Source: an uncultured Gammaproteobacteria bacterium (GTDB taxonomy: Bacteria > Patescibacteriota > Patescibacteriia > UBA9570 > XYC2-FULL-38-9). From it: a stretch of DNA of 64,000 bases. Positions 4,390 through 35,340 of this stretch are shown piece after piece. Position 1 is the first letter of the stretch, and each line of letters begins with the position of its first letter. A model generated the notes under the pieces. That model saw nothing but the letters and a program-made list of their open reading frames with translations. It did not search any database and was not told the DNA's origin. The translations under genes were made by a program, and so were the position numbers. The stretch is taken from NCBI GenBank assembly GCA_964344485.1, contig CAYFNF010000003.1, forward strand, positions 148,467 to 212,466, read 5' to 3'.

Positions 4390-4914
4390 CTACACGGTGT
4401 CGCGGAAGGTCTCTTGCGGCTGATCGATCCACGGGCACTCACCGCTGGCGTCTGTTGCCACGAACTGCGCGTGGACGTCCGGTTCGACCGTTGAGGTCTG
4501 CTTGTGCCACAGGACAGCGAGCGTGATCTCGTCGCGTGGGATACTCTCCCAGTCAGCAAGCCACTGCAGGGTGCGTTCCGTGGTCAGACCCGAGTCCGTC
4601 AGGTCATCGACCAGAATCACTCCAGCGCGCCGAAGCGGTTTGGCTGAAGTGAGGTCGCGGCTGAGCATGACCTCGCGCTGCTTCTGGTCCCCGTCCGGGT
4701 AGCTGGAGACCGAGAGCACGGCCAGCGGAAGACCGAGCGTACGAGCGATCAGCTCACCGGGCAGCATGCCGCCCTTGGCGATGCAGATCACCTGCTGGAA
4801 CTCGATTCCGCTCTCGCGAAGCTTCCGGATCAGGGTCCGGACCAGCTCGAAGTATGCGTCCCAGGTCACGTGTATTCGCGGGTGTTCGTCTGACATGATG
4901 GTTCCGTCCTCCAA
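4390..4914 (-). CDS. gpt: xanthine-guanine phosphoribosyltransferase-like (type I PRTase)
   Basis: Collinear similarity to E. coli Gpt: VTWD, I..GG(M/L)LPG.L.AR.LG, SSY....Q.E, PRPP-binding VILVDDLTDSGLT, C-terminal WIDQP. CDS is about 60% GC, far above flanks. Confidence 0.7.
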   Translation of the reverse strand: MEDGTIMSDEHPRIHVTWDAYFELVRTLIRKLRESGIEFQQVICIAKGGMLPGELIARTLGLPLAVLSVSSYPDGDQKQREVMLSRDLTSAKPLRRAGVILVDDLTDSGLTTERTLQWLADWESIPRDEITLAVLWHKQTSTVEPDVHAQFVATDASGECPWIDQPQETFRDTV

Positions 4915-4975
4915 TTAGTTTTGCCCGTTTCTATTGTACAACAAAAACAGTTTTTTTAGTATGTAGGGCTATAAA

Positions 4976-5893
4976 TTAATTTACCGTATAATCTGCGAAC
5001 TCGGGCTCTCGGATGAATTCAACATGAGCCAGGTTGCCGACTCCTGTTTCCTGGTCCTGACGAATCATGCGCTCTAGATGTGGAATAATGCTCTCTGGAT
5101 AAAAACGAATCGCGCTTAAACTATTTCTCAGCACATCGGATAAACGCACAGTTGCGTTTCCGGTCTCTTGAAAAGAAGGATCAATATGCTGGATTAATTG
5201 TTCGAGTAAACCGCGGAGGTGAGCCTCTGCTCGTCGCATGTTTTCCACTTCATCGTCTCGTAATTGTATTTTTCCACTATGTATCAATTCCATAATATGA
5301 CTGGAAAGAACACCGAATAGATGTGGATTCTCCATTTCAAGTTTATAGTAGCGATGAGATCCACCTTGTTCATCAGTAACCAAGAACTGTATTTCATCCA
5401 TAGGGTACTCTCTGACTCCTGCTTTGCTCATCAAGTTTGGCATTGCGAGAACACGATCCTGGTCCCCAATGCTTGCAGTGAGCTCTTTGACTAGTCGATC
5501 AATCTCAGGAGCAGAACGATCCAATACAGTTGTGCGGTCCCCAGAATACTCCGTGCCAGGTTGTTCTCGTTGAATGACAAGCTTTCGATCAAGCACCGCG
5601 TTGTTCACCGTACGCCCAACAAAGTAATCTACTTGTGTTCTATCCAACGTACGTAGTAAGCTCGTGCGGTTATAACGCTTTCCTAGTGTTGGTGTTCGTA
5701 GCTGATCATACGTACCTTGCGAGAACTCCCGTTGCGGTTCACGTGTGAGTAAATGCTGTAGGTATCGCTCGGAACGTTCGACTGTTTGTCCTTCTTTTAG
5801 TTTCTCTTCTCTCAACCGCGCAACAAAACCTGGATCATCGCGTAAGCGCGGATCTTGCCATCCTCCCCTTTGATATAACGGCCTACCTGGCAT
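4976..5893 (-). CDS. hypothetical protein (305 aa, no recognised domain)
   Basis: Long intact ORF with native-like composition; no motif identified by eye. Confidence 0.4.
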   Translation of the reverse strand: MPGRPLYQRGGWQDPRLRDDPGFVARLREEKLKEGQTVERSERYLQHLLTREPQREFSQGTYDQLRTPTLGKRYNRTSLLRTLDRTQVDYFVGRTVNNAVLDRKLVIQREQPGTEYSGDRTTVLDRSAPEIDRLVKELTASIGDQDRVLAMPNLMSKAGVREYPMDEIQFLVTDEQGGSHRYYKLEMENPHLFGVLSSHIMELIHSGKIQLRDDEVENMRRAEAHLRGLLEQLIQHIDPSFQETGNATVRLSDVLRNSLSAIRFYPESIIPHLERMIRQDQETGVGNLAHVEFIREPEFADYTVN

Positions 5894-5951
5894 TGTTGTA
5901 TTATACTACTATCTGTCTCTATTCTGGGTCTGAATTACTGCTTTGTCAATA

Positions 5952-5980
5952 TTGACAGCTTTTACTACGTGATATATAGT
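5952..5980 (+). promoter_or_regulatory. sigma-70-like promoter (TTGACA, 17-bp spacer, TATAGT)
   Basis: Perfect -35 hexamer and 5/6 -10 hexamer with 17-bp spacing in an AT-rich intergenic region; followed about 100 nt later by an intrinsic terminator. Confidence 0.45.
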
Positions 5981-6068
5981 ACTCGCAACATGAAGAACCA
6001 CGTATACAACGCTACAGTAACAACTACCCACCTTATGTGAGGCGTTGTTTAGTTTGTATCAATACCCT

Positions 6069-6093
6069 AGCGCCTCACTCGAGGCGCTTTTTG
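6069..6093 (+). terminator. rho-independent terminator (8-bp GC-rich stem AGCGCCTC/GAGGCGCT + TTTTT)
   Basis: Perfect inverted repeat with 4-nt loop followed by T-run; no upstream + strand CDS, so terminates a short transcript from the 5952 promoter. Confidence 0.5.
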
Positions 6094-6263
6094 ATTATTT
6101 ATTCATTATGAACTTTCTCTTTTTTCAATCAACTACTACACCGTTATTGCTCTTCTTCCTCACTGGAACAGTGCCGTAATTAGTGTTGTGTAGTTGAAAG
6201 GAAGAAGAGCGCGGTCCGAATGGGCCGTGTTTTTGTTCTTTTGAATGTAAAGGAGGAATTCCA

Positions 6264-7232
6264 ATGTATGGAATTGAAGCAGAGTATCTGATGACGAGTC
6301 ATCGCATCCAAGATGTGCTCAAGCTGCAGCTCCCGGGCGTGACCGCCGAGTTCTTCGACTTCATGGTCGAGATCATCACGGATCCGCACGCGCGTGCACG
6401 TCAGGCTGTGGACCAGCTGGAGCGTCGGGTGCAAAGAATGCGTCGACGAGGTGTGGAGCTCGAGCAGTGGGCGTCCTTCCCGGACCGAGTTCAGCCGATT
6501 ACGTTCACGGACGTGGTCGCAGACAGCCCGTACTACCGCTGGGTCTATGACCAAGCGTGTAGATTCACGGGTCATGAGCCGCTGGACCTGCACCATGTGG
6601 GCATGCACCTGAACTACTCGTGCTCGGACATGAGCGAAAACGAGCTGGTGCACGCGGTGAACTGGTGTCGGTGCATGAACTTCTTGTTCATCCTGTTCTC
6701 AGCAAACTCACCGTTCCAGAATGGGCAGTCCTGCGGGCTACTGTCACGACGGTCATATCAGTACCCCAACCGATACGACGTCCCGCTGTGGGAAAGCGCC
6801 GTCGCGTTCAAGCGCTGGATCCAGGAGCAAGAAGCGTTGTATCGCATCTACCCTGGAAAAGGTCGCTGCTGGATGACGGTCTGCCCGCGCTTAGAGGATA
6901 ATGATTTCCGCAAACCGATTCAACGGATCGAACTGCGATCGTTAGACTCAGGCACCAATGTCCGCTTCGGTGTTGTGCACGGGTGCTGCAAGCTACTCGA
7001 GCGCATTGTCTTGCGCGCACGCCAAGGAGCGCCCCTGCCAGCGCAACTGAACGAACTGCAGCACAACGATCGAGAGGTCTCGCGGCTCGGAGCAAGCGCA
7101 TGGGTACGCTTGAATGGGCAAGAGTTCTGCGTGCAGCAGCTCGCTGAACAATGGGCAGCGGGTATCGACACGCTGGAGCAGATATTAACGCACGGATGCG
7201 CAGCACAATCGTCCTTGCGCTACTGCGTTTAA
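6264..7232 (+). CDS. GCS2-family carboxylate-amine ligase (glutamate-cysteine ligase family 2 / YbdK-like amidoligase), tentative
   Basis: N-terminal GIEAEY (GxExE[FY] hallmark of GCS2/YbdK), about 320 aa, internal His-rich HHVGMH; strong AAGGAGG RBS 8 nt upstream; CDS about 60% GC. Confidence 0.45.
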   Translation: MYGIEAEYLMTSHRIQDVLKLQLPGVTAEFFDFMVEIITDPHARARQAVDQLERRVQRMRRRGVELEQWASFPDRVQPITFTDVVADSPYYRWVYDQACRFTGHEPLDLHHVGMHLNYSCSDMSENELVHAVNWCRCMNFLFILFSANSPFQNGQSCGLLSRRSYQYPNRYDVPLWESAVAFKRWIQEQEALYRIYPGKGRCWMTVCPRLEDNDFRKPIQRIELRSLDSGTNVRFGVVHGCCKLLERIVLRARQGAPLPAQLNELQHNDREVSRLGASAWVRLNGQEFCVQQLAEQWAAGIDTLEQILTHGCAAQSSLRYCV

Positions 7233-7327: not shown

Positions 7328-8551
7328 TTATTTCATTCTGAACTTCTTCCATGGGCTCCACTTGCTCCACCCAGCATCATTGCCGCATCGCACTCTGAAA
7401 CGATAGTACTGTTTACTCTTCACGAATTTCTTTGACTTTTTCAGAAATTTTGAATTAGTAGTAAGTCCTTTAAACTTTTTCACAGATGTAAATTTCCCGT
7501 TTGCTTTCTTTTTTTGTAACACTGCTTGATAGGTATCGGCATTTGCTTTCGCTTTCCACCACAACTTTGCTGACTTCTTCTTTTTCTTTTTCACTTTCAG
7601 ATGCTTCTTTTTCTTGATCTTGCTTGGTGCAGTGAGTTCATTAATTGTAAAATTTGCTAATGCATAATCTTCTGCTGAATCTGCTGCGCCATCAGTGGTC
7701 ATAGCAACACTATGCGCTCCGGCAATCCCAGCAACAGCATCACTGATCAATAAATCATACGCATCTTCATTACTTTTAGCTACGTCGGTAAGGACCTCAC
7801 AACTGAGTACAGAATTCTGACTGAGGTCATACGTTAAAATCTCATCTAAAGTGCCTTTAGAATTGTCTATAGTTGCATCAGTTAGATCCCACCCTGATTC
7901 ACTAGGCGATTTATTCTCTGCAACAAACACAATGCTTAGCTCTTCTCCGCTAGATAATCCACGGCTAAGCGTAAAATAGAGTTCTAGATCCAGTGTAGAG
8001 CCGGCGGTTGCCTCAGTTGGAGAAACTGATAACGAACCTACGGCATTTCCAAGGCCTTGGATGGACACAGTATCATCAGTCATGGTTGCATTCGCACTTT
8101 CACTCAGAGGCTGCGTTGTAACTCCAAAGCGAATTGACGTTGCCTCATCAGGATTCACCGCATCTGCTAGGGTGACGGTATACTTGTCTGCGGGGAGTTT
8201 TGCGGATAACGTTAATACAGTGCCCCTGCCATCAAGCACTGGTGAAAAAATAAAATTGGAGTTGCCAATAGATCCCTCTGATGAAGGAACCACATTTTGT
8301 AAATTTACATACTCCGGACCGTCGTCTTCTGTAGAGAAAATTGAGATAGTTGAACCGCTGGGTAGATCTACGTTAGTAGTGACGGCGATAGTATACGTCT
8401 CGGTTTCCCCAGCAATAGAAGCTGTTGGTGCAGCGGATACTTCTGATATATTTGCATCTTCCGTTCCTTGCATGCTAAATGCTTGCGCAGATGATGGCGC
8501 GTACACCAGGACTGCTGCGATAGCGAGTGTAAGCAAGATTGTTTTTTTCAT
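7328..8551 (-). CDS. secreted protein with Sec signal peptide, Ser/Thr-rich beta-rich body and Lys-rich C-terminal tail with FN3-like end
   Basis: MKKTILLTLAIAAVLVYAPSSAQA signal; C-terminal KKKKHLKVKKKKKK...YYRFRVRCGNDAGWSKWSP. Confidence 0.5.
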   Translation of the reverse strand: MKKTILLTLAIAAVLVYAPSSAQAFSMQGTEDANISEVSAAPTASIAGETETYTIAVTTNVDLPSGSTISIFSTEDDGPEYVNLQNVVPSSEGSIGNSNFIFSPVLDGRGTVLTLSAKLPADKYTVTLADAVNPDEATSIRFGVTTQPLSESANATMTDDTVSIQGLGNAVGSLSVSPTEATAGSTLDLELYFTLSRGLSSGEELSIVFVAENKSPSESGWDLTDATIDNSKGTLDEILTYDLSQNSVLSCEVLTDVAKSNEDAYDLLISDAVAGIAGAHSVAMTTDGAADSAEDYALANFTINELTAPSKIKKKKHLKVKKKKKKSAKLWWKAKANADTYQAVLQKKKANGKFTSVKKFKGLTTNSKFLKKSKKFVKSKQYYRFRVRCGNDAGWSKWSPWKKFRMK

Positions 8552-9096: not shown

Positions 9097-9101
9097 ATCT
9101 G

Positions 9102-9240: not shown

Positions 9241-9915
9241 CTATTCGTCTTCGGATGCTGCTACTTCTTCTTTATACTCATCCAAAGTAATGCATGTTTG
9301 GTTTGCCCGGTCCCAACACTTACCTTCTCCACATGCGCAGTCATCAGTAGACCCTTGCCCACAGGTTAACCCTTCACCGCTGGCAATAGCTTCTTCTCGC
9401 GCTACCTGTGTTGCACAAGTGCCGGTGCATGTGGTGGGGTACTCAATCCAATCCCCGCCTTCAGCATTACATGCAGCAGCTTCTTCCTTGTCATGCTCTT
9501 TTGGGATTACGGTAAAATCCACAGGCGCTTCCTCTTCAACTGGTTCATCCGGCGTCTCAATTGCCATCTTGTACTCTTCCATTGTCATACAAGCTTCATG
9601 AATATCGTTCCAGCATAGGTTGTTACCGCAATCACAAGATACCCTCTCGGAAAACCCACATATAGGGTCATTTGTTTCGTTGAACACCGCTTCTCTGCAC
9701 GTATCAGTACAGCCAGAAAACAGTTCCCACGAACCTCCTGAATCTACACATCCTTCTATTTGGTCCCTGGTGGCGGTACCGCCTTTTTCTGCTTGCTTTA
9801 TCGCGTACGAAGTTGAGTTGTAATAGATGAAAAGACCGATAAAAACCAATGCTGATATTGCAAAAACAGTTATGACAGTAGCTATCAATATCACATCCAA
9901 TGGAGGGCGCTTCAT
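9241..9915 (-). CDS. membrane-anchored cysteine-rich protein with internally duplicated about 60-aa Cys module
   Basis: N-terminal TM helix; two copies of GG.W..(x)C..TC......C......C.CG...CWD.....C.T..EYK. Confidence 0.5.
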   Translation of the reverse strand: MKRPPLDVILIATVITVFAISALVFIGLFIYYNSTSYAIKQAEKGGTATRDQIEGCVDSGGSWELFSGCTDTCREAVFNETNDPICGFSERVSCDCGNNLCWNDIHEACMTMEEYKMAIETPDEPVEEEAPVDFTVIPKEHDKEEAAACNAEGGDWIEYPTTCTGTCATQVAREEAIASGEGLTCGQGSTDDCACGEGKCWDRANQTCITLDEYKEEVAASEDE

Positions 9916-9925
9916 ACCGTTCTTT

Positions 9926-11320
<1,395 letters not shown>

Positions 11321-11323: not shown

Positions 11324-13114
11324 TTATCCTAACTTTCGTAAAGATTCCGTGAGTACACGAAATTCTTCTGAAAGCTGCTCGATCGTAGCATTATCATTAC
11401 TTTGTTCAGCTGTTGCAAGATCCTGTTCGATCTTCTTCAGCTGTCGTTGTATGCGAAATCGCTCTAAGCTTTCTAATAGAGTGAGCAGTTCTTGTTGTAT
11501 TTCTCTTGTTTCACGCTCACTATAGAGCTCTTCTCCGATGAGTTGAAGTTGCTGCCATTTGGATGACAATTGTGATGATTCAAACTCAACTGCATCTGGA
11601 GAAAAAGTACCTGCTTGATTATAATGGGATTCTATTTTTTTGTAAAGGTCTTGGAGTTCAGGGTCATGAATCGTATCTGACCGGACTTTCTCAGCAATCG
11701 CTGTAAATTCATCAGGTTTTACAGTAATTAGGGCAAGTAATCGCTCGACAGTCATATATTCCCGGTTGGGTTTTACTGTTTTTTGTGGTGTTTCTGTTGC
11801 ATCGCCCTTTGAGCCTCGCGCTTGGCTTTTTTGTTGTTTCTTGTTCATACTGCCTATCTTCTCTTGTAGTACGTCTGGGGTTACATCCAGAACCTCAGCG
11901 AGTTTTTTTACATAATGTGTTTGCTCAATTCTATCAGGGAACAGCGCAAGCATGGGCAGAAGCTCTTGTGCTGCCTTTTTCTTGTGATGCACATTGGTGA
12001 GATCAAGTGGCTCTAGAACAGAATCAAATGCATACTCCATGAACGGTTTTGCGTTTACAGCTCGATCGCGGAACTCTTGCGGGTCTTTCTTGATTAGATC
12101 GTCTGGATCTTGGCCTGGCGGAAGAATAAGGACTTTGATATTCATTCCTTGCTGGATCGCGAGCTGCATTCCTCGCCATGCAGCAGAGAGTCCTGCGGTG
12201 TCAGCGTCGAACGCTAAAATCACATTCGCAGAGTAGCGCTTGAGTAAACGGACCTGCTCTTCAGTGAGCGCGGTCCCGGATGCAGAGACCACGTTGCGGA
12301 ATTTCGCTTGATACGCAGTGATCACATCGGTGTAGCCTTCTACAATAACGGTCGCGTCCATCTTCTGAATATACTTCTTTGCCAAATGCAATCCATACAG
12401 TACTGCGCTCTTGTTATAAACCGGGGTCTGCGGAGAATTAATATACTTTGCTTCTTTCTCTTCTGGATTTAACGTGCGTCCGCCGAATCCAATGATGTTT
12501 CCATGTGCATTGTGAATAGGAAATAGTAACCGGCCACGAAATCGGTCGTAATACCCGCCGGTTTTCTCTGACGGCACAATCAGTCCGCTGCGTTCAATCT
12601 CCTTCTCTTTATAACCGTTCTTTTTTAAGTGATTCATCAACGCGTCCCATGAGTCCAAGCTGTAGCCGATCTGAAACAACTCAACCGTCTCTTTTTGAAT
12701 TCCCCGGTCAGTAATATACCTTCGAGCGTTCTCTGCTTCTTGTGCGTTTTGTAGCTGTGCTTGAAAGAAAGAATTTGCTTCTTTGAGGCAGTCCAGGAGA
12801 CGTGTCTTTTCATTATGTTCTCTTGGATTTGTTGGTCGTAACTCCACATTTGCTTTCTGTGCAAGAATACGCAATGCTTCTGCGAATTCTATAGATTCAA
12901 TCTCTTGGACGAACGTAAAGAGGTCGCCACCCTTGCCACATCCAAAACAGTGGAACATCTGCTTGGGTTCAGAGACCATAAAACTCGGTGTTTTCTCATT
13001 ATGGAATGGGCACCGTGCTTTGTGATTTGCGCCTGCTTTTTTTAGTGAAACGTACTCTTGGACTACGTCCACTATGTTCAAGCGTTCTTTGATCTCCTCG
13101 ACTGGTGTAGGCAT
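11324..13114 (-). CDS. dnaG: DNA primase DnaG
   Basis: CHC2 zinc finger CPFHNEKTPSFMV..FHCFGCG, RNA polymerase domain, TOPRIM VIVEGYTDV; dnaG-rpoD synteny. Confidence 0.9.
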   Translation of the reverse strand: MPTPVEEIKERLNIVDVVQEYVSLKKAGANHKARCPFHNEKTPSFMVSEPKQMFHCFGCGKGGDLFTFVQEIESIEFAEALRILAQKANVELRPTNPREHNEKTRLLDCLKEANSFFQAQLQNAQEAENARRYITDRGIQKETVELFQIGYSLDSWDALMNHLKKNGYKEKEIERSGLIVPSEKTGGYYDRFRGRLLFPIHNAHGNIIGFGGRTLNPEEKEAKYINSPQTPVYNKSAVLYGLHLAKKYIQKMDATVIVEGYTDVITAYQAKFRNVVSASGTALTEEQVRLLKRYSANVILAFDADTAGLSAAWRGMQLAIQQGMNIKVLILPPGQDPDDLIKKDPQEFRDRAVNAKPFMEYAFDSVLEPLDLTNVHHKKKAAQELLPMLALFPDRIEQTHYVKKLAEVLDVTPDVLQEKIGSMNKKQQKSQARGSKGDATETPQKTVKPNREYMTVERLLALITVKPDEFTAIAEKVRSDTIHDPELQDLYKKIESHYNQAGTFSPDAVEFESSQLSSKWQQLQLIGEELYSERETREIQQELLTLLESLERFRIQRQLKKIEQDLATAEQSNDNATIEQLSEEFRVLTESLRKLG

Positions 13115-18210: not shown

Positions 18211-18214
18211 ATAT

Positions 18215-23832: not shown

Positions 23833-26800
23833 TTATGCAGCAGCAGCTGGCGGCTCGGGTTGCTGACGATGTCGATGATGGCTGAACCATGCTATACCAA
23901 CTAAGAATATAATGACGATTCCAATGTTAATCATCACCAGCATGGTGGTGCTTGAGAGGCGATTCTTCTCTTCAATCACAAACCGCGTGATCTCGACCTG
24001 GTCAGATTTCACACCGTTTACTTCGGTTTGAGCAAAAACGACGTGATCTCCTTCACCGAGCAACTCTGCTGGAACCGTAATACTCCATTTACCGTTGGTG
24101 TCTACTTGCGCGACTTTTACTAATGGGTCTGAATAGATCGTCAGAATTGCCACAGCAGACATCTCTCTATACTGCTCAGCAATCTCTCCGGAGATAGTAA
24201 TCTCGTTCTTCTGTTCTTCGACTGTGCCGCCGAATAATCGTCTTGTTGCATCAATAATATCCCACTGCTGAACTTGCGTATAGGTGACGGTCCCATCATC
24301 TGATACCGTCGGTTCGATTGTAGTGCTATCTTGCTGGAACTCTATATCCGCAGTGTCTTGCAGCTGTCCAGTCTCGGTGGTCTGCAATTCTTCTCTTTGC
24401 TGCTTGGTCAGCGGCACGACTTCATCTGTATATGTATACGGATTCTCTGGCGGTTGTTTGACTCCATCCTCAGCATATTGTGTTTTTATTAGCTCTTCAA
24501 ATTTCTTTACGTTCACTACAACCACATCTGGAAGGCCGGTGTCGGTTGAACCCCCTTGGATTGGGTTGGTGCCGTACTTCACTTCATCACTATCTGATAC
24601 GCCGTCGTCATCAGAATCCGTGTCTGTTGGGTCAGAACCCAAATCCACTTCGTCGGAATCGCTTACCCCATCTTGATCTGAGTCCGCGTCTTCTGGATCA
24701 GTACCTAGCTCTTTCTCTTGTTCATCAGTCAGGCCGTCTCCGTCACTATCGGTCTCAGCTGGCTCGGTGTCAGTTCCTTGGTCAGGGCCTGGGTCTGTGC
24801 CCTGGCTCGGATCGCCGGTGTCAGTGTCTGGAGTATCAGTAGAAGGAGTTTCTTGAGGGGTGGCAGGGGCTACGGGTACGCTCACAGGAGCACTTACTGG
24901 TGCTGACACAGTAAAGGTGATTTCATTCGAAGTAGTCTCTGGATAGCCAGCTTGTTCAGAAGTGACAGCGTATGCAGTATGCGTGCCTGTAGATAGTGCA
25001 GATGGACGACATGCAACAGAGCTGGTCTCTCCACCACCAGTTGCAGTAGTATCGCAAATTCTCTGCCCATCAACATAGATTTGGGTATAAGCACCAGTAC
25101 GTGCTAATAGAGTAATCCATGGTCGGTTATATGATGTCTGCGCGTCCACCACAACTTGTTGCATCACTGCTGCAGGGTATGGGGTTGCGCGTACAATAGT
25201 CTGTGGAGTAAATACCTTTATCACAGTATCTTTTTTCGTATTCACGACCTTTACCTTGATCGCATTCGCTCCAATTGATAGTGCGGTGGTTGGTGTGCCC
25301 TGATATGAAATCACTGGACCAGTGTCGCTGGTAATAGCAGCAGTTCCGCTCAACGTACCGTTTACGAACAGTTGTACTGCAACATCATCCACTGAGATAT
25401 TTCCGATATAGACGTTACCGAAAAAGACCGGGTTCTTACTAAACGTCACATTCGAAGTCAATTTACTTCGCTCCTCTTTTGGATAGATATGAAATCGATC
25501 TGACACTACAGAAGATCCGACCGTATACCGGACACTGGATGTCTTTCCCACATTCCCTTTCTTATCTTCGATATTTGCCTCAGACGTATGTTTGTCGTAA
25601 TTCTTCTGGATCTGCGAATCTACCTCCCATTCTCCTTGCGCGTCTGTGGTGTCAGAACCGTCTAACTCACCTTCGGTATATACAGAAACTTCAGACTCTG
25701 TTTCAGCAGTTCCACTAAATGAAACGTATTGGTTGTAAACAATGTCATTTTGTTCTGGCTCTTCGATTACTGCTGCAGGCGGGCCGATTGAGAAACTCGC
25801 GGTCTTCTCCCACTCTGTGGAGCTGGATCTACTAGCGGTCTTCACTTTTGTGTACAGCTCCCAGAGTCCGCGCTTCAGTGTAAACTCTGTTTCTGCTGTG
25901 CCGTTACTGCCGACCTGTTCTTCATTGATCTTCTCTGCGCCGTTCTTTACGCGCACAAATTTAAACACCACCCACTGGCCAGTGGTTCCGGTTGCTGATA
26001 GCTCTACCTTCAGACGACCGGTATCCTCCTGTGCACTCAGTCGATGTACGCTCGAAGGATCACTTCGCAACTGCTCTCCATTTACTGTTAGTGCGGTGGG
26101 TAACAGTGATGACGCTGATCCTTCCTGTGTAGTGAATGAGTCTACTGAAGAGTTCGATGTATTACTACTCGCATCCGCGCTCACTACCTGATAGTAATAT
26201 GTAGTGCTGCTTAAAAGCCCTGATACAGTCACTGAATGGCTCTTTGTTAATCCACTAGTTGTTTGTGACTGCGGAATTTGCTCAGTCTTTCCATATCGTA
26301 CTTGTGATGTTGCTTTTTCATTCGTGGTCCAAGTAATAACCGCGGATGTAGAACGGCGAGTGACTTGAATATCTGAAATAGTGGGCGCCGAAAGGTCTCC
26401 AGTATCTGTGGTTGGGATTACTGACCCTGAAGTAAACTGAGATGTATTGTTTGATGAGTCTGTTAGCGTTGCAGTGACTTTATAGTTAGAAGCATATGAT
26501 TCTAGAGTGCTCTTGGGAACATCAACGCTCCATGTTAAACTCGTGACCGCTGCTTCTGTTATATAGACCTCGCCTTCATTATTCCGGTCTACAAAGACCT
26601 CCACTGTTCCGTCACTAGATGCAGTACCCGAGACAGTGTATGTATCTCCTTGCAAAGAAATTGCACTGATCACTGGGGTAGCAAGCCCCTCATTTGCTCC
26701 ATCAATTAGATTAATTCCACTTGAGGAGTTGTTATAGATAGAATTCTGTGTTACTAAATTGTATTTAGTTCCACTTTGAGAGATGTTCAATCCATCTGCA

Positions 26801-29202
26801 TAGGCGTTAGTAACTATGTTGCCCGGTCCAATGGTGTTGCTCTGACTAGTATTGGAGAGTGTTACTGCGTTCCACTGACACGGAAGCGGATCACCGTTTG
26901 TATCGATGCCGATCCTGTTTGATGAGAGAGTATTGTTTGAAGAGTCAGCAAATACCACACAGCGGTCTATATTGCCGATCACATTATCACTAATGGTGTT
27001 CCCAGTGCTGTTCGCTCGAATGATAATTCCATATACGTCATCCTGAGTAACAGGTTTCGTGATACCAATCCTATTACTGGAAATCACATTATTAATTCCA
27101 CCTTGCATTAGAATGTTCATGACATTGCCCGCAATAGTGTTGCTACCATTGATAGTGTTAGAACTGCCAGTGAGTTCAAGGCCGACAGCATTCTGCATCA
27201 CCGTTTGTTTACTCACTGCGAGGCCAATAGTATTCCCAGTGGCGGTGTTACTGTCTCCTTCAATCCATAACCCCACGCCGCTATGGTTAGAGATGAAATT
27301 CGTAGATATAGAATTACTATCGCTTTCAGTATCAATCACAAGACCGTTTGTGGTGTTTCCGATATTCGTATCACTTGCAGATACACCGATGTAGTTATCT
27401 GAGAGTGTGTTTGAATCAGAGGAATAGATAGCAATGCCCGATTCATTAAAACCAATGACATTAGATTGCGATGTTCCAATTCTACTATTTGATACTCCAG
27501 TAAATAGAATTCCGGTTCCAGTGTTCCCTCGATCGACTAGTGAAGCGTTGGTTCCAATATAATTACCCTCTATCGCTAGCTGAGAGATGTTTCCTGCGCT
27601 GCTATTTGCCTCAATACCATTTGATAGATTTCCAGAGATAGTATTCTTCGAAATCGATACCGCATTCGCGCTAATGGCAATAGAGATGCCATCCTCACCA
27701 TTCGAAACCGCTGCTCCACTTGAATCCAATCCAATAGTATTCTCAGTTATTGTGACATCGCTATCGTTTTCCAAGTAAATCCCATTTGCATCATTTCCTG
27801 AAATCACGTTATTCGGACCAATCGTTGTGTCTGCCCCACCAAAGATTCCGTCAGTATTTGGAATGGCTGTTCCAGAACTGTTTAATCCAATATAGTTCCC
27901 GGTGATTGTTCCAGTGCTCTGGTTCACTACTACCCCTGACTGGGTATTACCTGCAATAGTGTTGTTCGAAAGTGTATTCGCTCCTTGAAATGTTACACCG
28001 TTATTATTTTCAACTGCGCTCGTGCCGTTACTATCTACTCCGATATTATTCTTATTCACCGTGTTCCCAGATGTAGTTGCTTCTAAGAAGATACCTGACT
28101 TTGTATTGCCTGAAATTGTATTGCCAACGATCGTGTTATTGTTTCCGGTTACTCGAATACCTGAATCCCCATTAGTGGATTTTGTGGAACCGTCTGCAGT
28201 TATACCTATATAGTTCAAACCGATAGTACTGCTACTGCCTCGCAATTCAATTCCGTTGCTCGTATTTCCAGAGATGATATTGCGGAACGCTTGGTTGCTG
28301 CTATCTCCAATAGTGATGCCAGATACCGTCGCTGCTATATTAACTCCGTTTATCCCATTAGCGGTGATAGTGTTAGAACGCAATACATTAGTATTTGAAT
28401 TCTCGATAAAATTCACTCCCTGCTCAGAATTATTCGATATCGAGTTACCGGTTACCGTGGTGCTGGTTGCAGTGCCCCCAAAATAGATTCCGTTACGATT
28501 GCCTTTGATTGTGTTGCCTGAAATGGCATTATTACTCGATGCGACCTGAATGCCTTCACCCCCTGCAAAGCCTTCTATCGTGAAATTTGATATCTGACAA
28601 TTATCCGCTCGGATAGCTAGCCCATCATTATCTTGAGCTGCTGACAGCGCGCTCCCTTCAATGCCAACTCTGTTATCCCCATCGATTATAAGTTCATCAG
28701 TAATCGCGGGTAGCACACTTGAGGTTACTGCTATCTTTCCGTTTAATGAACTATTGAAACTGATCACGTCAGCACCAAGACTCGCGTTTGCATCGAGTAT
28801 AGCTTGCCGCAAAGATCCCGCACCGCTGTCATTCAAGTTTGACACAGTGAAATTAGCAGCATACGCGACTTTGATCTGATTCACCGGTAGCACTACAGAT
28901 GAAATTGCATACAAGAGAATAACCACTGCAACAAAGAACGCGGTGACTAACCCGCTGCGTAGTCGTATCTTTTTTCTGCGACTGTGATGCTCATGATACG
29001 AAAAACCCCAGATCCCTTTATGGTCTTGGTCATATAATGTACAGAATGTGTGCTGAGGTGGATAGAAAATGATATAGAAATATTCGTACAGCACGTATGC
29101 TATATATAGTGGAACGAGCGCAATGCCTAAAAGGACACGAATAATGAACGGTCGGGGTTTGGCTTGTACGTAGCACTCAATATGATTGATGGTTTTTTTC
29201 AT
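23833..29202 (-). CDS. giant cell-surface protein (1789 aa): N-terminal TM/signal, GSLRQAI (CSLREA-like) motif, many parallel beta-helix repeats, FN3-like domain, TSP3-like Ca-binding D-x-D-x-D-G repeats, C-terminal TM anchor
   Basis: Repetitive N.I.GN...GI units typical of right-handed beta-helix; DSDGDGLTDEQE/DSDQDGVSDSDE/DSDDDGVSDSDE repeats; C-terminal hydrophobic LVMINIGIVIIFLVGIAWF + HHRHRQQ. Confidence 0.8.
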   Translation of the reverse strand: MKKTINHIECYVQAKPRPFIIRVLLGIALVPLYIAYVLYEYFYIIFYPPQHTFCTLYDQDHKGIWGFSYHEHHSRRKKIRLRSGLVTAFFVAVVILLYAISSVVLPVNQIKVAYAANFTVSNLNDSGAGSLRQAILDANASLGADVISFNSSLNGKIAVTSSVLPAITDELIIDGDNRVGIEGSALSAAQDNDGLAIRADNCQISNFTIEGFAGGEGIQVASSNNAISGNTIKGNRNGIYFGGTATSTTVTGNSISNNSEQGVNFIENSNTNVLRSNTITANGINGVNIAATVSGITIGDSSNQAFRNIISGNTSNGIELRGSSSTIGLNYIGITADGSTKSTNGDSGIRVTGNNNTIVGNTISGNTKSGIFLEATTSGNTVNKNNIGVDSNGTSAVENNNGVTFQGANTLSNNTIAGNTQSGVVVNQSTGTITGNYIGLNSSGTAIPNTDGIFGGADTTIGPNNVISGNDANGIYLENDSDVTITENTIGLDSSGAAVSNGEDGISIAISANAVSISKNTISGNLSNGIEANSSAGNISQLAIEGNYIGTNASLVDRGNTGTGILFTGVSNSRIGTSQSNVIGFNESGIAIYSSDSNTLSDNYIGVSASDTNIGNTTNGLVIDTESDSNSISTNFISNHSGVGLWIEGDSNTATGNTIGLAVSKQTVMQNAVGLELTGSSNTINGSNTIAGNVMNILMQGGINNVISSNRIGITKPVTQDDVYGIIIRANSTGNTISDNVIGNIDRCVVFADSSNNTLSSNRIGIDTNGDPLPCQWNAVTLSNTSQSNTIGPGNIVTNAYADGLNISQSGTKYNLVTQNSIYNNSSSGINLIDGANEGLATPVISAISLQGDTYTVSGTASSDGTVEVFVDRNNEGEVYITEAAVTSLTWSVDVPKSTLESYASNYKVTATLTDSSNNTSQFTSGSVIPTTDTGDLSAPTISDIQVTRRSTSAVITWTTNEKATSQVRYGKTEQIPQSQTTSGLTKSHSVTVSGLLSSTTYYYQVVSADASSNTSNSSVDSFTTQEGSASSLLPTALTVNGEQLRSDPSSVHRLSAQEDTGRLKVELSATGTTGQWVVFKFVRVKNGAEKINEEQVGSNGTAETEFTLKRGLWELYTKVKTASRSSSTEWEKTASFSIGPPAAVIEEPEQNDIVYNQYVSFSGTAETESEVSVYTEGELDGSDTTDAQGEWEVDSQIQKNYDKHTSEANIEDKKGNVGKTSSVRYTVGSSVVSDRFHIYPKEERSKLTSNVTFSKNPVFFGNVYIGNISVDDVAVQLFVNGTLSGTAAITSDTGPVISYQGTPTTALSIGANAIKVKVVNTKKDTVIKVFTPQTIVRATPYPAAVMQQVVVDAQTSYNRPWITLLARTGAYTQIYVDGQRICDTTATGGGETSSVACRPSALSTGTHTAYAVTSEQAGYPETTSNEITFTVSAPVSAPVSVPVAPATPQETPSTDTPDTDTGDPSQGTDPGPDQGTDTEPAETDSDGDGLTDEQEKELGTDPEDADSDQDGVSDSDEVDLGSDPTDTDSDDDGVSDSDEVKYGTNPIQGGSTDTGLPDVVVVNVKKFEELIKTQYAEDGVKQPPENPYTYTDEVVPLTKQQREELQTTETGQLQDTADIEFQQDSTTIEPTVSDDGTVTYTQVQQWDIIDATRRLFGGTVEEQKNEITISGEIAEQYREMSAVAILTIYSDPLVKVAQVDTNGKWSITVPAELLGEGDHVVFAQTEVNGVKSDQVEITRFVIEEKNRLSSTTMLVMINIGIVIIFLVGIAWFSHHRHRQQPEPPAAAA

Positions 29203-29465
29203 ATCTCAGGATAACAAAAAGGCCTTCTCCTCAATAAAAAGCCTTTATTTTTCTATTCAATGAATGCATATACTATTGTCTGGTTTTGTTTTTGTTTTTG
29301 AACTGACTACATATAGAATTTTAACATTTTTAAGATTGTTTGTCAAACAATAAAATCCGGGAAAAAGCGGGTTTTGCTGTCCGCAGGATACAAAAAAAGC
29401 CAGGGACCCACGATCGGGTGTGGCGTTAGCTCAGGAACGGGTGACGCGGTGCTGCGTCGGTCCGG

Positions 29466-29759
29466 CTACGCGCTGGGCGCGTCGCTGGCCAGGGCCAGCA
29501 GGCCGTCCGGCATGACCGCGGCGAGCGTACCGAGGTGGCCGACGCCGTTGGCGCCGCTCGAGCCGTTCCCGGGCTCGTTGGACTGCGCGTCCTGGTCGGC
29601 GGTACCGCCGTCGCTGCTGCCGTCGTCGTCCGGGCTCTTCCTCTGGCTGCTGCCGGGCAGGCCGTCCGCCTCGCCACGTCGGGCGAGCTGGGCCGTGAGG
29701 TTCTGTGAGCCACCGACTCCGCGGTGCAGGGGGCAGGCGTTCCGTCGTCTCTGCGTCAT
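29466..29759 (-). CDS. small Gly/Ser/Asp-rich protein (97 aa) in about 70% GC island
   Basis: GAGGAG RBS 6 nt upstream of ATG; third-codon-position GC about 95% in this frame over a 60-nt sample, versus Arg/Pro/Ala-rich nonsense in overlapping frames. Confidence 0.45.
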   Translation of the reverse strand: MTQRRRNACPLHRGVGGSQNLTAQLARRGEADGLPGSSQRKSPDDDGSSDGGTADQDAQSNEPGNGSSGANGVGHLGTLAAVMPDGLLALASDAPSA

Positions 29760-29880
29760 CTCTTCTCCTCGTCAGTTCGACGTTCGCGCAGGCGTTGGGC
29801 AGGAGCCCAACTAAAAGCATCGAGTTGCCTCGAGCTTAACGCAAGAACTCTACACGAAAGTCTAATATTTGTCAAGAGTA

Positions 29881-29909
29881 GACTAGAAAACAGGGTTATT
29901 CGCCCTGTT
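29881..29909 (-). terminator. intrinsic terminator of ppsA (AACAGGG-N7-CCCUGUU + U-run on minus strand)
   Basis: 7-bp perfect stem just downstream of ppsA stop, followed by TTTTCT on the coding strand. Confidence 0.55.
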
Positions 29910-29929
29910 GCTAGTTTTTCTCCTTGTTT

Positions 29930-32374
29930 TTAGCTCTTATTCTTCAACTCTTTTTCATGCTGCGCAATCATCACCGAAGTCTTTACAACTGTGTCAGGAT
30001 TCAATGAAATAGAATCAATTCCTTTGTCGACTAAGAACTCTGCGATCTCTGGAAAGTCTGATGGTGCTTGTCCACAGATCCCGATCTTCTTCCCTTCTTC
30101 ATGAGCATAGCGAATCACTCGTTCAAGGATAATCGTAACCGCAAGATTCCGTTCGTCATACAGATGAGCAACTAATCCAGAGTCACGGTCCAACCCAAGC
30201 AGCAGTTGTGTCAGATCATTGGTCCCGATAGAGTATCCATCAAATATCTTTAAGAACTCTTTTGCGAGAATCACATTCGCTGGTATCTCACACATCATGT
30301 AGATCTCTAATCCATTCTCTCCTTGTTTCAGTCCGTTCTCTGCCATGATCTGTACTACCTTCTTCCCTTCCTCTGGTGTACGACAGAACGGGATCATAGC
30401 CTTCATATTCGTGAGCCCCATCTCATTGCGTACTCGTTTAAACGCCTCGCACTCTAACGCAAACGCTTCTTTATACTTCTCGGAGTAGTACCGTGACGCA
30501 CCACGCCATCCGATCATGGGGTTTTCCTCATGTGGCTCAAATTGCTTTCCTCCAATTAAGTTCGCGTACTCATTGGACTTGAAATCAGACATGCGCACGA
30601 TCACATCATGCGGATAAAACGCTGCACAGATCTTTCCCACTCCTTCTGCGAGCTTCTCAACAAAGTATTCGGTCTTGTCTTTATACCCAGCGGTTAATTC
30701 CTCTATCTGTTCCTTTACTTCACTGTCTTCAAGCTCATTAAAACGCAGCAATGCTAATGGATGTATCTTGATATAGTCCAAAATGATCAGTTCTTCACGT
30801 GCGAGTCCTACTCCCTGATTCGGAATTTGCGCAAAGTCGAATACGCGCGACGGGTCCGCTACAATCATCATCATCTGTGTTTCGGGCAGTTCCATACCAG
30901 AGATGTCAGTTTCATCTATACGAAACGGTAATTCGCCTTCATAGATAAACCCTCTCTCACCTTCTGCACACGAGACCGTCACGGTATCACCAGAATGCAA
31001 CGTGGTCGTAGCTTCTCCGGTGCCGACAATAGCCGGAATGCCGAGCTCACGAGAGACAATAGCAGCATGGGATGTTCTGCCTCCGGAGTTAGTTACAATC
31101 CCAGAGGCGATCTTCATAATCGGCTCCCAATCAGGGTCTGTTATTTCAGTCACAAGTATCTGTCCTTTTTGAAATCGGTGGATCTCAGACGCGTTTTTAA
31201 TGACATTTACTTCACCAGTACCGATCTTTGCGCCAACTGCGACTCCTTCCAACAACACCTTGCCCTTCTCTTCTAATACATACTCTCTGATCACATTCTT
31301 GTCTGTTTGTGACTGCACGGTCTCTGGACGCGCTTGCACAATGTATAACTCTCCGGTCCCACCATCTTTGGCCCATTCAATATCCATGGCTTTTTCATAG
31401 TGCTCCTCAATCTGCATGGCCCAGTGTGCGAGTGTAAGAATCTCCTCATTTGTCAGAACGAACTGTTGTTGCTCTTCTTCTGGAACCTGCACTTCTTTGA
31501 CCGCGCCTCCTAATGAGACCTCTGCTTCAGCTGCATAGACCATCTTATACTGCTTGGACCCAAGTTTTTTCTCAATAATCGGAGAGTTGGTAAATGCGAT
31601 CTTGCCCTGCTTCTCTACAGCGCCCTGCTTGAGCGCGGGCTTGAATACAATGAACTCATCTGGGTCAACCTTTCCTTGAACCACCATCTCGCCTAGCCCC
31701 CACGTAGCGTTGATCACCACCGCGTTCTCAAATCCAGACTCGGGGTCAATAGAGAACATCACTCCAGAGCATGCAGTGTCTGATCGCACCATCTTCTGGA
31801 TACCAACCGAAAGTGCAATCGTAAAGTGATCAAAGTTCTTGTCTTCACGGTATGAGATCGCGCGGTTAGTAAACAGTGACGCAATACAGCGCCTAGTGGC
31901 TTCTAGTACTTCGTGTGCTCCTTGTACATGTAAAAAAGTCTCTTGCTGTCCAGCGAATGACGCGTCCGGCAAGTCCTCAGCAGTTGCAGAGGACCGAACC
32001 GCGACATCCACATACTCTTCTCCATCTTTTTTGCTCAGTTCAGCATACGCTTGCTCCACTGCCTGCTCTAACTCATTCGGAAAATCTGCCTTCAAAATCG
32101 TCTCGCGTACTTTATGCCCTCGTTCCGTCAGGTTCTTCATGTCTGTAGTGTCTAAATCCGAAAGAATCTCCTTAATAGTATCTCGAATACCGGCTTGATC
32201 AATAAAGAAATTATACGCGTGCGCGGTCAGAGCAAATCCATTTGGAACTCGAATCCCTTTTTCAGCCAAGTTTTGATACATTTCGCCGAGCGAAGCGTTC
32301 TTACCGCCGACATACGGCACGTCCTCGATGCTTAAGTCGTTGAACCAAAGTATATATTCTTGGTCTTTGCTCAT
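29930..32374 (-). CDS. ppsA: phosphoenolpyruvate synthase (pyruvate, water dikinase)
   Basis: Collinear with E. coli PpsA: VGGKNASLGEM, RSSATAEDLPDASFAGQ, catalytic His region TNSGGRTSHAAIVSRELGIPA, PEP-utilising C-terminal domain; start chosen at MSKDQEY by homology. Confidence 0.85.
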   Translation of the reverse strand: MSKDQEYILWFNDLSIEDVPYVGGKNASLGEMYQNLAEKGIRVPNGFALTAHAYNFFIDQAGIRDTIKEILSDLDTTDMKNLTERGHKVRETILKADFPNELEQAVEQAYAELSKKDGEEYVDVAVRSSATAEDLPDASFAGQQETFLHVQGAHEVLEATRRCIASLFTNRAISYREDKNFDHFTIALSVGIQKMVRSDTACSGVMFSIDPESGFENAVVINATWGLGEMVVQGKVDPDEFIVFKPALKQGAVEKQGKIAFTNSPIIEKKLGSKQYKMVYAAEAEVSLGGAVKEVQVPEEEQQQFVLTNEEILTLAHWAMQIEEHYEKAMDIEWAKDGGTGELYIVQARPETVQSQTDKNVIREYVLEEKGKVLLEGVAVGAKIGTGEVNVIKNASEIHRFQKGQILVTEITDPDWEPIMKIASGIVTNSGGRTSHAAIVSRELGIPAIVGTGEATTTLHSGDTVTVSCAEGERGFIYEGELPFRIDETDISGMELPETQMMMIVADPSRVFDFAQIPNQGVGLAREELIILDYIKIHPLALLRFNELEDSEVKEQIEELTAGYKDKTEYFVEKLAEGVGKICAAFYPHDVIVRMSDFKSNEYANLIGGKQFEPHEENPMIGWRGASRYYSEKYKEAFALECEAFKRVRNEMGLTNMKAMIPFCRTPEEGKKVVQIMAENGLKQGENGLEIYMMCEIPANVILAKEFLKIFDGYSIGTNDLTQLLLGLDRDSGLVAHLYDERNLAVTIILERVIRYAHEEGKKIGICGQAPSDFPEIAEFLVDKGIDSISLNPDTVVKTSVMIAQHEKELKNKS

Positions 32375-33866: not shown

Positions 33867-33878
33867 GTACGTATTATA

Positions 33879-34313
33879 TCATATTGAACAATAAAAAAAA
33901 GCTGCTGTTGCAGGTACTGACCAGGCTGCGGCTACGCGGGTGAGTGCGAGTCTGTCACGTCGCAGAACTCGTTCCGGTACCTCCAGGGCAGTGAGCTGCC
34001 CCGCGGTGTAGCGCTGCCAGATGATGAGCTGATCCAGGTGCGTTCCCGGGATGCTGCTGAGCGCAGCGTTGGTGCGGCGCACAGCCGTGAGCACGGTCAT
34101 GGGAGGTGCACCGTTGGCAGATGCCTCGGTTCCGCTGGCCACGTAGATGCGGCCCTCTCCACGTACCTCGTCCAGCTCCTCGCTGGTGAAGCCCCCGCCC
34201 AGTGAATCGGGCTTGAAGACCTGGAGGCTCCCGATCTCCACCACCAGCCTGAGCGCGGTCTCGCTGGCGTACAGCACGTGCGTCGGCGTTCCAGAAGTTG
34301 TGTTGCAGTTCAT
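33879..34313 (-). CDS. hypothetical protein (about 144 aa) in GC-rich island
   Basis: High-GC CDS with GGAG RBS upstream of MNCNTTSG start; no motif recognised; boundaries tentative. Confidence 0.35.
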   Translation of the reverse strand: MNCNTTSGTPTHVLYASETALRLVVEIGSLQVFKPDSLGGGFTSEELDEVRGEGRIYVASGTEASANGAPPMTVLTAVRRTNAALSSIPGTHLDQLIIWQRYTAGQLTALEVPERVLRRDRLALTRVAAAWSVPATAAFFYCSI

Positions 34314-34523
34314 ACGTTCGCTCCAGCACTGTCCTTTCAATGCAGCTATGGGTGTTCCCACCAACAGGGTATACCATAGCAGGAATAAATATGCAAACCA
34401 CTCTCATACGTCACACTATATAAGACATGATATGAAAACTGCTTGACTGTAACACCAAAACTACCTATTATCAGGGACGGAATAGTCTTTGTCGCCGTAT
34501 GAACCTGTTGGAATGGAGGTGTT

Positions 34524-34856
34524 TTGAGCGCCGCAGCCCACGACCGAGACTTCCCGCGTACGCGAGGTGAACCCGTCGAGACCGATGACGATGTCCGTGT
34601 CGCACTGCAACGACTCGAAGCCATCCCCGCACTGGAAGGTGCAGTGGCAACGATCGTGGCCTGGTGCTTCGTGGCCTTCGCGGTCAAGGAAGGATGGTGG
34701 CACGCCATCCTGATCTTCACCCTCGTGGGATGCGTGATCGCGTCTCTGGCGTGTATCGTCCACCGGGCCGACCTGAACCGGAAGTACATCCGGTCGTTCC
34801 TGTTCTTCTTCCTGGTCTGGCCACTGGTGATGACGGTCAAGGTCAAGAGCTTCTGA
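34524..34856 (+). CDS. small two-TM membrane protein (110 aa), GC-rich, TTG start
   Basis: GGAGG 4 nt upstream of TTG; upstream TTGACT-17-TATTAT promoter at about 34443-34471; two hydrophobic helices. Confidence 0.4.
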   Translation: MSAAAHDRDFPRTRGEPVETDDDVRVALQRLEAIPALEGAVATIVAWCFVAFAVKEGWWHAILIFTLVGCVIASLACIVHRADLNRKYIRSFLFFFLVWPLVMTVKVKSF

Positions 34857-34989
34857 TCACGGTACGCGGTTTTTTTATACTATTGCATTTTTTCGCGTTA
34901 ATCGCGTTTATTTCTATAAACAGCACTTGATTTTTTCATTTCTCTCTGTATACTAGGGGCGCACCTTTTTACTGCGAGGGGAGATAGGA

Positions 34990-35340
34990 GTGCACCCAGA
35001 GGAGCGGGAAGCCGCTCAGGCCCAATTCAGCATCGAATCATCGCGACAGCATGCCATCATGGCGATCGCGGTGCTGGGAAGCATCGCCTTTCACGGCGTC
35101 TTCCTGCCGGTTGTCTGGATCTTCTTCGGAATGTTCATTGCAGTTGGAGCAGACATCGCCCTGTGCATTCTGGCCGCCCTGGTGTGCCAGAACTGCGTCA
35201 AGGTCGTCCGCATACCTCGTCATGCGGGCATACTGCTCACGCTGTCGTACTTCCCGGAGTTCCTGGTCTGGGCTGCAATGTGGCCGATGATGGTCACTGC
35301 TGCGAAGATCCACTTCAGTCGAATGTCACCTCCCCCTTGA
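34990..35340 (+). CDS. small polytopic membrane protein (116 aa), GC-rich, GTG start
   Basis: Purine-rich RBS, upstream TTGATT-16-TATACT promoter at about 34927-34954; 3 hydrophobic segments. Confidence 0.4.
   Translation: MHPEEREAAQAQFSIESSRQHAIMAIAVLGSIAFHGVFLPVVWIFFGMFIAVGADIALCILAALVCQNCVKVVRIPRHAGILLTLSYFPEFLVWAAMWPMMVTAAKIHFSRMSPPP

Follow-up and report, generated by a model that had tools for sequence, protein, structure and literature searches.

Six GC-rich genes in a Kerfeldbacteria-like genome, probably natural single-gene imports trimmed to ribosome-binding site and coding sequence

The 64-kb stretch of DNA analysed here (from contig CAYFNF010000003.1; hereafter the window, 45.8% GC) carries six coding sequences (CDSs) that are far richer in GC than the genes and spacers around them. 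They encode a purine phosphoribosyltransferase (PRTase), a 322-aa protein resembling the GCS2-type ligases and four small proteins, here called g97, g144, g110 and g116. For each segment we list the CDS, the limits of the GC-rich block (change-points) and the overall GC content or the GC fraction at third codon positions (GC3), with z relative to the native genes of the window.

4390-4896, minus strand: segment 1, PRTase; change-points 4377-4912; 63% GC, GC3 0.80 (z 9.6)
6264-7232, plus strand: segment 2, GCS2-like ligase; change-points 6293-7227; 59% GC, GC3 0.70 (z 7.2)
29466-29759, minus strand: segment 3, g97; change-points 29399-29808; 72% GC
33879-34313, minus strand: segment 4, g144, a 144-aa orphan open reading frame (ORF); change-points 33901-34288
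34524-34856, plus strand: segment 5, g110; change-points 34528-34869; GC3 0.78
34990-35340, plus strand: segment 6, g116, a 116-aa orphan; change-points 34956-35353

As the native reference we took 50 ORFs of the window, with a GC fraction of 0.444±0.026, a GC3 of 0.422±0.039 and a maximum GC3 of 0.52. Against this set, the six CDSs have GC fractions of 0.58-0.74 (z = 5-12) and GC3 values of 0.70-0.91 (z = 7-12), whereas the spacers flanking them contain only 18-43% GC; the outlying composition of the CDSs and the AT-richness of the spacers, both reported in a first-pass annotation, are thereby confirmed. G and C are each raised at third positions; CTG, CCG, ACG, AAG, GAG and NNC codons are favoured, the reverse of the host's preference, and the shift touches every amino acid, amounting to generic high-GC codon usage. 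By our own calculation, the GC fractions at the three codon positions (GC1, GC2 and GC3) match the Muto-Osawa expectation for genomes of about 58-73% GC, which argues for little amelioration. The six CDSs thus combine the atypical base composition and the atypical codon usage by which horizontally acquired genes are recognized.

The block limits were placed as two-state maximum-likelihood change-points, with support intervals 10-80 nt wide. In five genes they lie 4-35 nt from the start and stop codons, g97 being the exception. The first-pass annotation described the boundaries as coinciding exactly with start and stop codons; because of the width of the support intervals, exact can only mean within about 5-35 nt, a close agreement that holds for the five genes and fails for g97.

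The window further contains dnaG-rpoD, the genes for pyruvate kinase (pyk) and phosphoenolpyruvate synthase (ppsA), clpB, rpsF-ssb-rpsR-efp, five tRNAs and the genes of three giant surface-type proteins. The ppsA product shares 71% identity with its counterpart in Candidatus Kerfeldbacteria CG15 (locus L001) and 67% with the one in Kerfeldbacteria UBA9570 (L002), and the order rpsF-ssb-rpsR-efp-pyk-ppsA, and beyond, is common to the window and L001. On this identity and gene order we assign the window to the chromosome of an uncultivated bacterium of the candidate phyla radiation (CPR, Patescibacteria) close to Candidatus Kerfeldbacteria. A phage origin of the window was considered and rejected, as megablast against phages gave no real match.

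The six genes also differ from their neighbours in how translation would begin. Scored as GGAG or GAGG 4-17 nt 5′ of the start, a Shine–Dalgarno (SD) site precedes all six GC-rich genes and only 2 of the 50 native ORFs, the latter in line with the 5% expected at random (Fisher p = 8.6e-7). In 13 of the 50 native genes, including pyk, ppsA and an ABC ATPase gene, a near-consensus TATAAT box instead ends 4-12 nt before the start, an arrangement that looks leaderless, and initiation in this organism thus appears to be largely leaderless or otherwise SD-independent; native starts that exemplify the pattern lie at 4338, 32413, 33866, 23764, 47523 and 59071. The fraction of genes with an SD is zero in the Kerfeldbacteria loci L001 and L002 and 0-0.2 in most CPR loci fetched. 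This contrast (6/6 against 2/50) suggests that the SD of each GC-rich gene was probably imported together with the gene.

Sigma-70-like sites lie in AT-rich DNA upstream of three of the small genes and of the leader that precedes the ligase gene:

29875-29847, minus strand: promoter of g97, TTGACA-17-TAGAGT
34443-34471, plus strand: promoter of g110, TTGACT-17-TATTAT
34927-34954, plus strand: promoter of g116, TTGATT-16-TATACT
5952-5980, plus strand: promoter of the GCS2-like leader, TTGACA-17-TATAGT

With TTGACA or TTGACT -35 boxes and TATAAT-like -10 boxes, these promoters look native, and native genes have similar ones. The earlier description of host-like promoters followed by host-like GGAGG ribosome-binding sites is therefore right for the promoters and wrong for the ribosome-binding sites, which are foreign to this genome. 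Likewise, the contrast once drawn with ordinary islands of horizontal gene transfer, which carry foreign flanks, disappears: these genes do carry foreign flanks, albeit short ones, in the form of the six SDs and of the 5′ untranslated region (UTR) and tail of g97.

Because the source is a metagenome-assembled contig (301,665 bp at NCBI), high-GC reads of another organism might have been stitched into a CPR contig during assembly or binning. We checked the junctions against short MEGAHIT contigs in the ENA assemblies of two runs of PRJEB17505, reached by exact-protein look-up. Contig L086 equals window 28959-31381, apart from two mismatches where the contig ends, and covers the g97 block with its two junctions; L090, 100% identical to 4406-6651, reaches across the 5′ junctions of the two enzyme genes, PRTase and GCS2-like; and L089 equals 2910-3742. 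Four junctions are thus reproduced base for base in two other, independent assemblies, which argues against the chimeric assembly raised in the first-pass annotation. In favour of an artefact, L090 and L086 end inside or near GC-rich genes. Against this, the junctions fall at SD or start and at stop codons, with promoters, one ORF runs in frame from foreign into native DNA, and chimeras would not respect gene limits six times. We consider an artefact highly improbable.

Deliberate engineering, also raised earlier in the form of recoded or synthetic inserts, would account for the strong SD-spacer-ATG layout and for an EcoRI site (GAATTC) that separates the SD of the GCS2-like gene from its ATG (6252-6266, AAGGAGGAATTCCAATG). 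However, the sequence was assembled from environmental metagenomes and its organism has not been cultivated; the codon usage runs counter to host optimization, and vector, marker or scar sequences are absent. Orphan ORFs are present, as is a truncated one, g144, whose 3′ end runs into the pyk promoter. Homologs in four other wild contigs carry the same AAGGAGG-type SD, without the restriction site, and on these grounds we judge the EcoRI site a coincidence. Engineering is barely conceivable here.

Comparison with the closest relative locates some of the insertions. Between efp and pyk, where g144, g110 and g116 lie, the spacer measures 1,555 bp in the window and 425 bp in L001, and BLAST between the two spacers found no similarity outside the flanking genes. 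None of the GC-rich genes has a homolog in L001 or L002, and the cluster at 33.9-35.3 kb as well as g97 are absent from the orthologous sites of L001. A metagenome scan with the native 305-aa protein that flanks the PRTase and GCS2-like sites found no relatives. L001 has, immediately after ppsA, a 250-bp block of its own (12551-12750, 62-72% GC) with an SD, an ATG and a 42-aa hydrophobic ORF; it occupies the same intergenic slot as g97 and is unrelated to it in sequence. Short GC-rich inserts thus recur in the Kerfeldbacteria-like lineage. GC3 outlier genes, some of them led by an SD, were also seen in other CPR loci (L035, L039 and L087). The efp-pyk spacer of L001 itself (8180-8440) contains a 27-aa hydrophobic ORF besides a promoter and a long perfect hairpin.

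The junctions bear no signature of mobility: the longest k-mers shared by the two junctions of any segment are 6-8 nt and A/T-rich, no tRNA adjoins a GC-rich segment, and no mobility domain or integrase was found in the roughly 36 of 56 window ORFs scanned, neighbours included. Integron gene cassettes were rejected on the same scan, as the 3′ ends share no imperfect inverted repeats and the genes have promoter-like sites of their own. An origin in any sequenced phage or plasmid was likewise rejected, every search of the GC-rich proteins against phages, plasmids and IMG/VR being empty.

The PRTase is read from an ATG at 4896 as a 168-aa protein, with the SD GGAGGA at 4907-4912 and a T8 run at the 3′ end of the gene; the TTG at 4914 proposed earlier as its start (CDS 4390..4914) is not the true one. 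It matches PF00156 with 65.5 bits (cut-off 26.3), and its acidic loop for binding phosphoribosyl pyrophosphate (VLVDD-x-x-x-G-x-T), VILVDDLTDSG (VILVDDLTDSGLT), is invariant across the family alignment. The nearest relatives in the PDB are the archaeal purine PRTases 4trb and 1vdm, followed by the xanthine-guanine PRTase of Escherichia coli (1a95), and by sequence the protein is classed as a type I PRTase of the purine/xanthine type. The substrate is not assigned at equivalog level, the protein lying below every NCBIfam equivalog cut-off (xanthine PRTase, 62 bits against 138; hypoxanthine-guanine PRTase, 34 against 150). Its best non-self homolog (54% identity) comes from an unclassified 58%-GC contig, L081, where it has native composition and where murE/ftsI/uppS-type genes lie nearby. 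Other homologs lie in 37%-GC contigs and in low-GC contigs resembling candidate division WS2.

The product of the GCS2-like gene matches PF04107 with 41.4 bits (cut-off 21). Its AlphaFold2 model (pLDDT 87) matches YbdK structures 1r8g and 1tt4 in Foldseek with TM-scores of 0.68-0.72 (E = 2.5e-11 to 5.7e-11), and we predict a carboxylate-amine ligase of the YbdK/GCS2 type. Alike in Pfam domain and predicted fold, it differs from known YbdK/GCS2 ligases in being only 14-15% identical to them and in belonging to a small separate family outside the curated NCBIfam subfamilies YbdK and GshA (TIGR02050, 42.6 bits against 176; TIGR02048, 38 against 249). A profile search of PDB sequences gave no match at 1e-3. 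Seven homologs were found, 42-50% identical to the window protein, and the eight members form a star-like family at 41-54% identity, except for one pair at 75%; a metagenome scan with the alignment yielded one 1.2-kb contig. Where a context was recovered, the homolog sits in a contig of low to middle GC, and several of these contigs are CPR-like. Taken with the PRTase homologs in 58%-GC unclassified and WS2-like low-GC contigs, these contexts do not bear out the suspected actinobacterial donor.

Wherever its context is known (five of five), the GCS2-like gene has a higher GC3 than its flanks: 0.70 against 0.42 in the window, 0.57 against 0.22 in L082, 0.57 against 0.17 in L088, 0.68 against about 0.5 in L087 and, weakly, 0.48 against about 0.38 in L084. 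The four homologs (L082 10001-10993, L088 269-1219, L087 775-2227 and L084 10001-10987) are GC-rich relative to their neighbours and preceded by an SD, a weak one in L088. Of 15 genes in L082, the homolog alone has an SD. A second GC-rich, SD-led gene (79-aa) adjoins the homolog in L087, where the SD is present on both of these genes and absent from the native gene. L084 and L088, with ligases 41% identical, share an M20 peptidase gene upstream.

Ahead of the GCS2-like gene of the window, whose first ten or so codons are themselves AT-rich, lies a leader with a tandem layout:

5952-6262, plus strand: AT-rich leader of the GCS2-like gene, with the promoter TTGACA-17-TATAGT at its start
5990-6040 and 6108-6179, plus strand: short ORFs with threonine (Thr) runs, MKNHVYNATVTTTHLM and MNFLFFQSTTTPLLLFFLTGTVP
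6069-6088 and 6205-6234, plus strand: hairpins with T-run, one after each Thr-run ORF
6252-6256, plus strand: SD of the GCS2-like gene, GGAGG

The homologs in L082 (…FTTTTL… and …LTTTTTTTN…; 9700-9930) and L087 (…YTTTTLL…; 1100-1230) have leaders organized in this way. Five leader ORFs from three unrelated genomes thus contain the Thr runs TVTTT, TTT, TTTT, TTTTTTT and TTTT, with a hairpin and T-run after each, and in four of the five predicted minimum-free-energy folds (L087 being the exception) the Thr codons pair with the downstream segment. On these predictions, the elements would have the components of an attenuator: a regulatory-codon ORF, a terminator and, in four of the five, a codon run within a putative competing helix. 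Rfam attenuator models match exactly at the leader positions with scores below the gathering score of 55 bits: Phe_leader reaches 23.7 bits at 6104-6237 of the window, and Phe_leader and Thr_leader reach 30.1 and 26.2 bits in L082. The tandem elements therefore look like candidate threonine-sensing leader-peptide attenuators. They resemble Thr_leader (RF00506) and Phe_leader (RF01859) in having a Thr-codon ORF, downstream pairing and a hairpin with U-run before the regulated gene, here in three genomes. They differ in score (24-30 against 55 bits), in being tandem duplicates and in that their ORFs are apparently leaderless, the first one beginning about 9 nt past the -10 box, which suggests the host's leaderless start mode. 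The Rfam attenuators, moreover, regulate amino-acid biosynthesis operons of Proteobacteria, whereas the gene here is a YbdK-like ligase in CPR bacteria, for which we found no report of Thr leader-peptide attenuators in the literature.

These features give some substance to another explanation, in which gene-specific selection keeps long-resident genes GC-rich, rich in rare codons and led by an SD. It would concern chiefly the GCS2-like ligase, which would be a long-resident CPR gene held under tandem Thr attenuators, with selection maintaining such a CDS in at least five lineages. In one variant, threonine starvation might switch the ligase on through its attenuators, so that its mRNA would need codons whose tRNAs stay charged. 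GC3 raised above the flanks in all five contexts (by 0.28 in the window), the M20-GCS2 synteny of L084 and L088 at 41% identity, and AT-rich leaders of conserved layout whose Thr codons and leaderless starts are both of host type all speak for such selection, and an SD would be functionally required behind an attenuator. The shift, however, affects every amino acid, raises G3 as well as C3 in the manner of a high-GC genome and goes far beyond known translational selection, while the ribosomal protein genes and efp of the window have ordinary GC3 values of 0.39-0.45. Only eight family members are known, the star-like spread of their identities broken by a single close pair, and the four orphans, the truncated g144 and the GC-rich UTRs of g97 would be left unexplained. 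Very strong gene-specific selection, one of the earlier suggestions, thus survives as a live minority option for the GCS2-like gene only; for that gene as for the set, we think it unlikely. Judging from eight sequences, the GCS2-like gene has either been replaced repeatedly by GC-rich xenologs or been kept GC-rich by something. Persistent selection, if true, would mean gene-specific codon 'insulation' in ultra-small symbionts, allowing, for example, translation despite uncharged common tRNAs.

The four small proteins have no homolog in Pfam, NCBIfam, plasmids, phages or IMG/VR. g97 is a 97-aa low-complexity protein with the SD GAGGAG at 29765-29770. Its GC-rich block, with narrow support intervals, extends beyond the CDS on one side by a 49-nt 5′ UTR and on the other by a 67-nt 3′ tail reaching up to a T7 run. 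GC1, GC2 and GC3 of 0.72, 0.59 and 0.91 support the minus-strand frame; a structured RNA spanning this island from promoter to T-run was rejected in view of the same codon periodicity, the SD and ATG, and the lack of an Rfam match. In g144, the GC-rich block stops 22 nt before the stop codon, and the last seven or so codons and the stop lie in native AT-rich DNA that includes a T8 run and the extended -10 box of the pyk promoter, so that g144 is probably a fragment that lost its 3′ end and was joined to native DNA. Searched with phmmer against 1.84 billion representative proteins, g144 gave only repeat-protein noise, its resemblance to giant repeat proteins was dismissed as a low-complexity effect, and its AlphaFold2 model (pLDDT 35) is unusable. 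g110 (110-aa) starts at TTG, with the SD GGAGG, three hydrophobic segments and a T7 run at its 3′ end. g116, a membrane protein, starts at GTG behind the SD GAGGGGAG and has a terminator at 35372-35390 common to efp. g110 and g116 have two to three hydrophobic segments each and a weak mutual similarity (E = 0.006). With four of the six genes orphans, and the homologs of the two enzymes not linked elsewhere, the dispersed functional set once suggested finds no support; there is no evidence of a shared functional link among the six.

Runs of seven or eight Ts adjoin the 3′ ends of four GC-rich blocks (4365-4377, 29392-29398, 33893-33900 and 34870-34876), which is not chance, because the window has only 38 A/T runs of at least 7 nt. 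Intrinsic terminators imported with the genes were rejected as their source: shuffled controls fold more stably than the sequence preceding the runs of the PRTase, g144 and g110. The T-runs coincide with the -35/UP region of whichever co-oriented native promoter comes next, as in the T8-15 nt-TATAGT, with TG before it, ahead of the ABC ATPase gene and in the T8...TGATATAAT ahead of pyk, and from their position they fit the upstream part of that promoter better than terminators.

The T-runs bear on one more possibility, in which donor mRNA units reaching from the SD to past the stop codon would have been reverse-transcribed and inserted beside A/T runs. Such capture would explain promoter-less, near-CDS-exact inserts, since the segments begin at or just 5′ of the SD and end 5-70 nt past the stop, and in four of them the end lies right at a T7-8 run with no convincing terminator hairpin. 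Yet a reverse transcriptase gene, a target-site duplication and a precedent are all missing. Promoter parts account better for the T-runs, g144 is truncated at its 3′ end and not at a transcript end, and trimming by deletion covers the same data. We regard RNA-mediated capture as quite improbable.

With a probability of roughly 0.7, the six genes are natural single-gene imports from GC-rich, SD-using donors, trimmed to about SD plus CDS. The donors would have had genomes of about 58-73% GC, and their genes would have entered intergenic spacers on at least four or five separate occasions. Foreign fragments would have entered the spacers, after which deletion would have removed everything not under selection, the limits being the SD and start of the imported gene on one side and the promoter of the next native gene on the other. 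What was kept would be essentially SD and CDS, plus the UTRs in g97, probably because a streamlined genome deletes foreign flanks that have no function; in g144, trimming would have cut into the ORF. The GC-rich UTRs of g97 and the truncation of g144 point to trimmed random fragments and not to designed cassettes. Transcription would come from recruited sigma-70-type promoters in the AT-rich, native-type spacers and, for the PRTase, from read-through. The two enzymes are full-length, and both could plausibly be of use to a symbiont dependent on nucleotides and amino acids, the PRTase in purine salvage and the YbdK-like ligase under a putative threonine-sensing attenuator.

Several observations weigh against this reading. 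The leader of the GCS2-like gene is AT-rich, has the organization seen with distant homologs and begins translation in the leaderless manner of the host, and the two 41%-identical homologs that share the upstream M20 peptidase gene are both raised in GC3; leader layout and synteny suggest long residence, and a simple recent import fits them poorly. Neither direct repeats nor att-like sites mark the junctions, and the roughly 36 of 56 ORFs scanned include no integrase gene. The spacers within the three-gene cluster are AT-rich, which calls for three insertions at one spot or for a donor with AT-rich spacers. The ENA contigs belong to the same project as the likely source of the metagenome-assembled genome and are independent assemblies, probably of one and the same community, not independent samples of a different population. 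Finally, non-self identities do not exceed 54% for the PRTase and 50% for the GCS2-like protein, four genes have no homolog and no donor was found, so that the direction and recency of transfer are read from composition alone.

Three giant genes lie side by side on the minus strand at 14671-29202 (1179, 1849 and 1789 aa). An M48 peptidase domain and an ABC1 kinase-like domain occur together in the 1849-aa protein, beta-helix/NosD and purple-acid-phosphatase-N domains and TSP3 repeats in the 1789-aa one, and GC1 is unusually high (0.66) in the first two genes (1179 and 1849 aa). Another GC-rich stretch (63713-64000, 66%) encodes the N-terminal part, Ala/Gly-rich and of low complexity, of a gene that leaves the window on the minus strand; amino-acid composition, not foreign insertion, accounts for its GC content.

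Horizontally acquired genes of atypical composition, or 'genomic islets', are familiar from parametric detection of horizontal transfer and from the amelioration theory of Lawrence and Ochman. The six genes resemble them in their foreign GC, GC3 and codons, in their absence from the syntenic site of a relative, in being mostly orphan or accessory and in their intergenic position. They differ in being single genes of 0.3-1 kb with no integrase, tRNA anchor or repeats, with flanks cut to the SD and tens of bases, and with a foreign SD that contrasts with an SD-less, largely leaderless host. Episymbiotic CPR bacteria, moreover, acquire genes from neighbour or host bacteria, as do Saccharibacteria with host-type metabolic genes. 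The recipient here likewise has a reduced genome and salvage or metabolic enzymes, and GC-rich outliers occur in the CPR loci L035, L039 and L087; a near-identical donor sequence is missing here, and a link to a physical host would be conjectural. No paper on horizontal transfer in Kerfeldbacteria was found in the literature. The kind of event is thus ordinary and needs no new kind of genetic system, while the form seen here is unusually clean. What is added is the contrast between SD and leaderless starts, the evidence of trimming and the candidate Thr attenuators before a persistently GC-elevated YbdK-like ligase.

A purine PRTase suits the salvage needs of reduced, nucleotide-dependent CPR bacteria, and a YbdK-like ligase under putative threonine attenuation, GC-elevated wherever it is found, poses a small question for follow-up. 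How reduced, host-dependent CPR bacteria gain genes is poorly documented, and the window offers a clean, internally controlled example. In such SD-less or leaderless genomes, an SD site may serve as a simple extra marker of recent imports.

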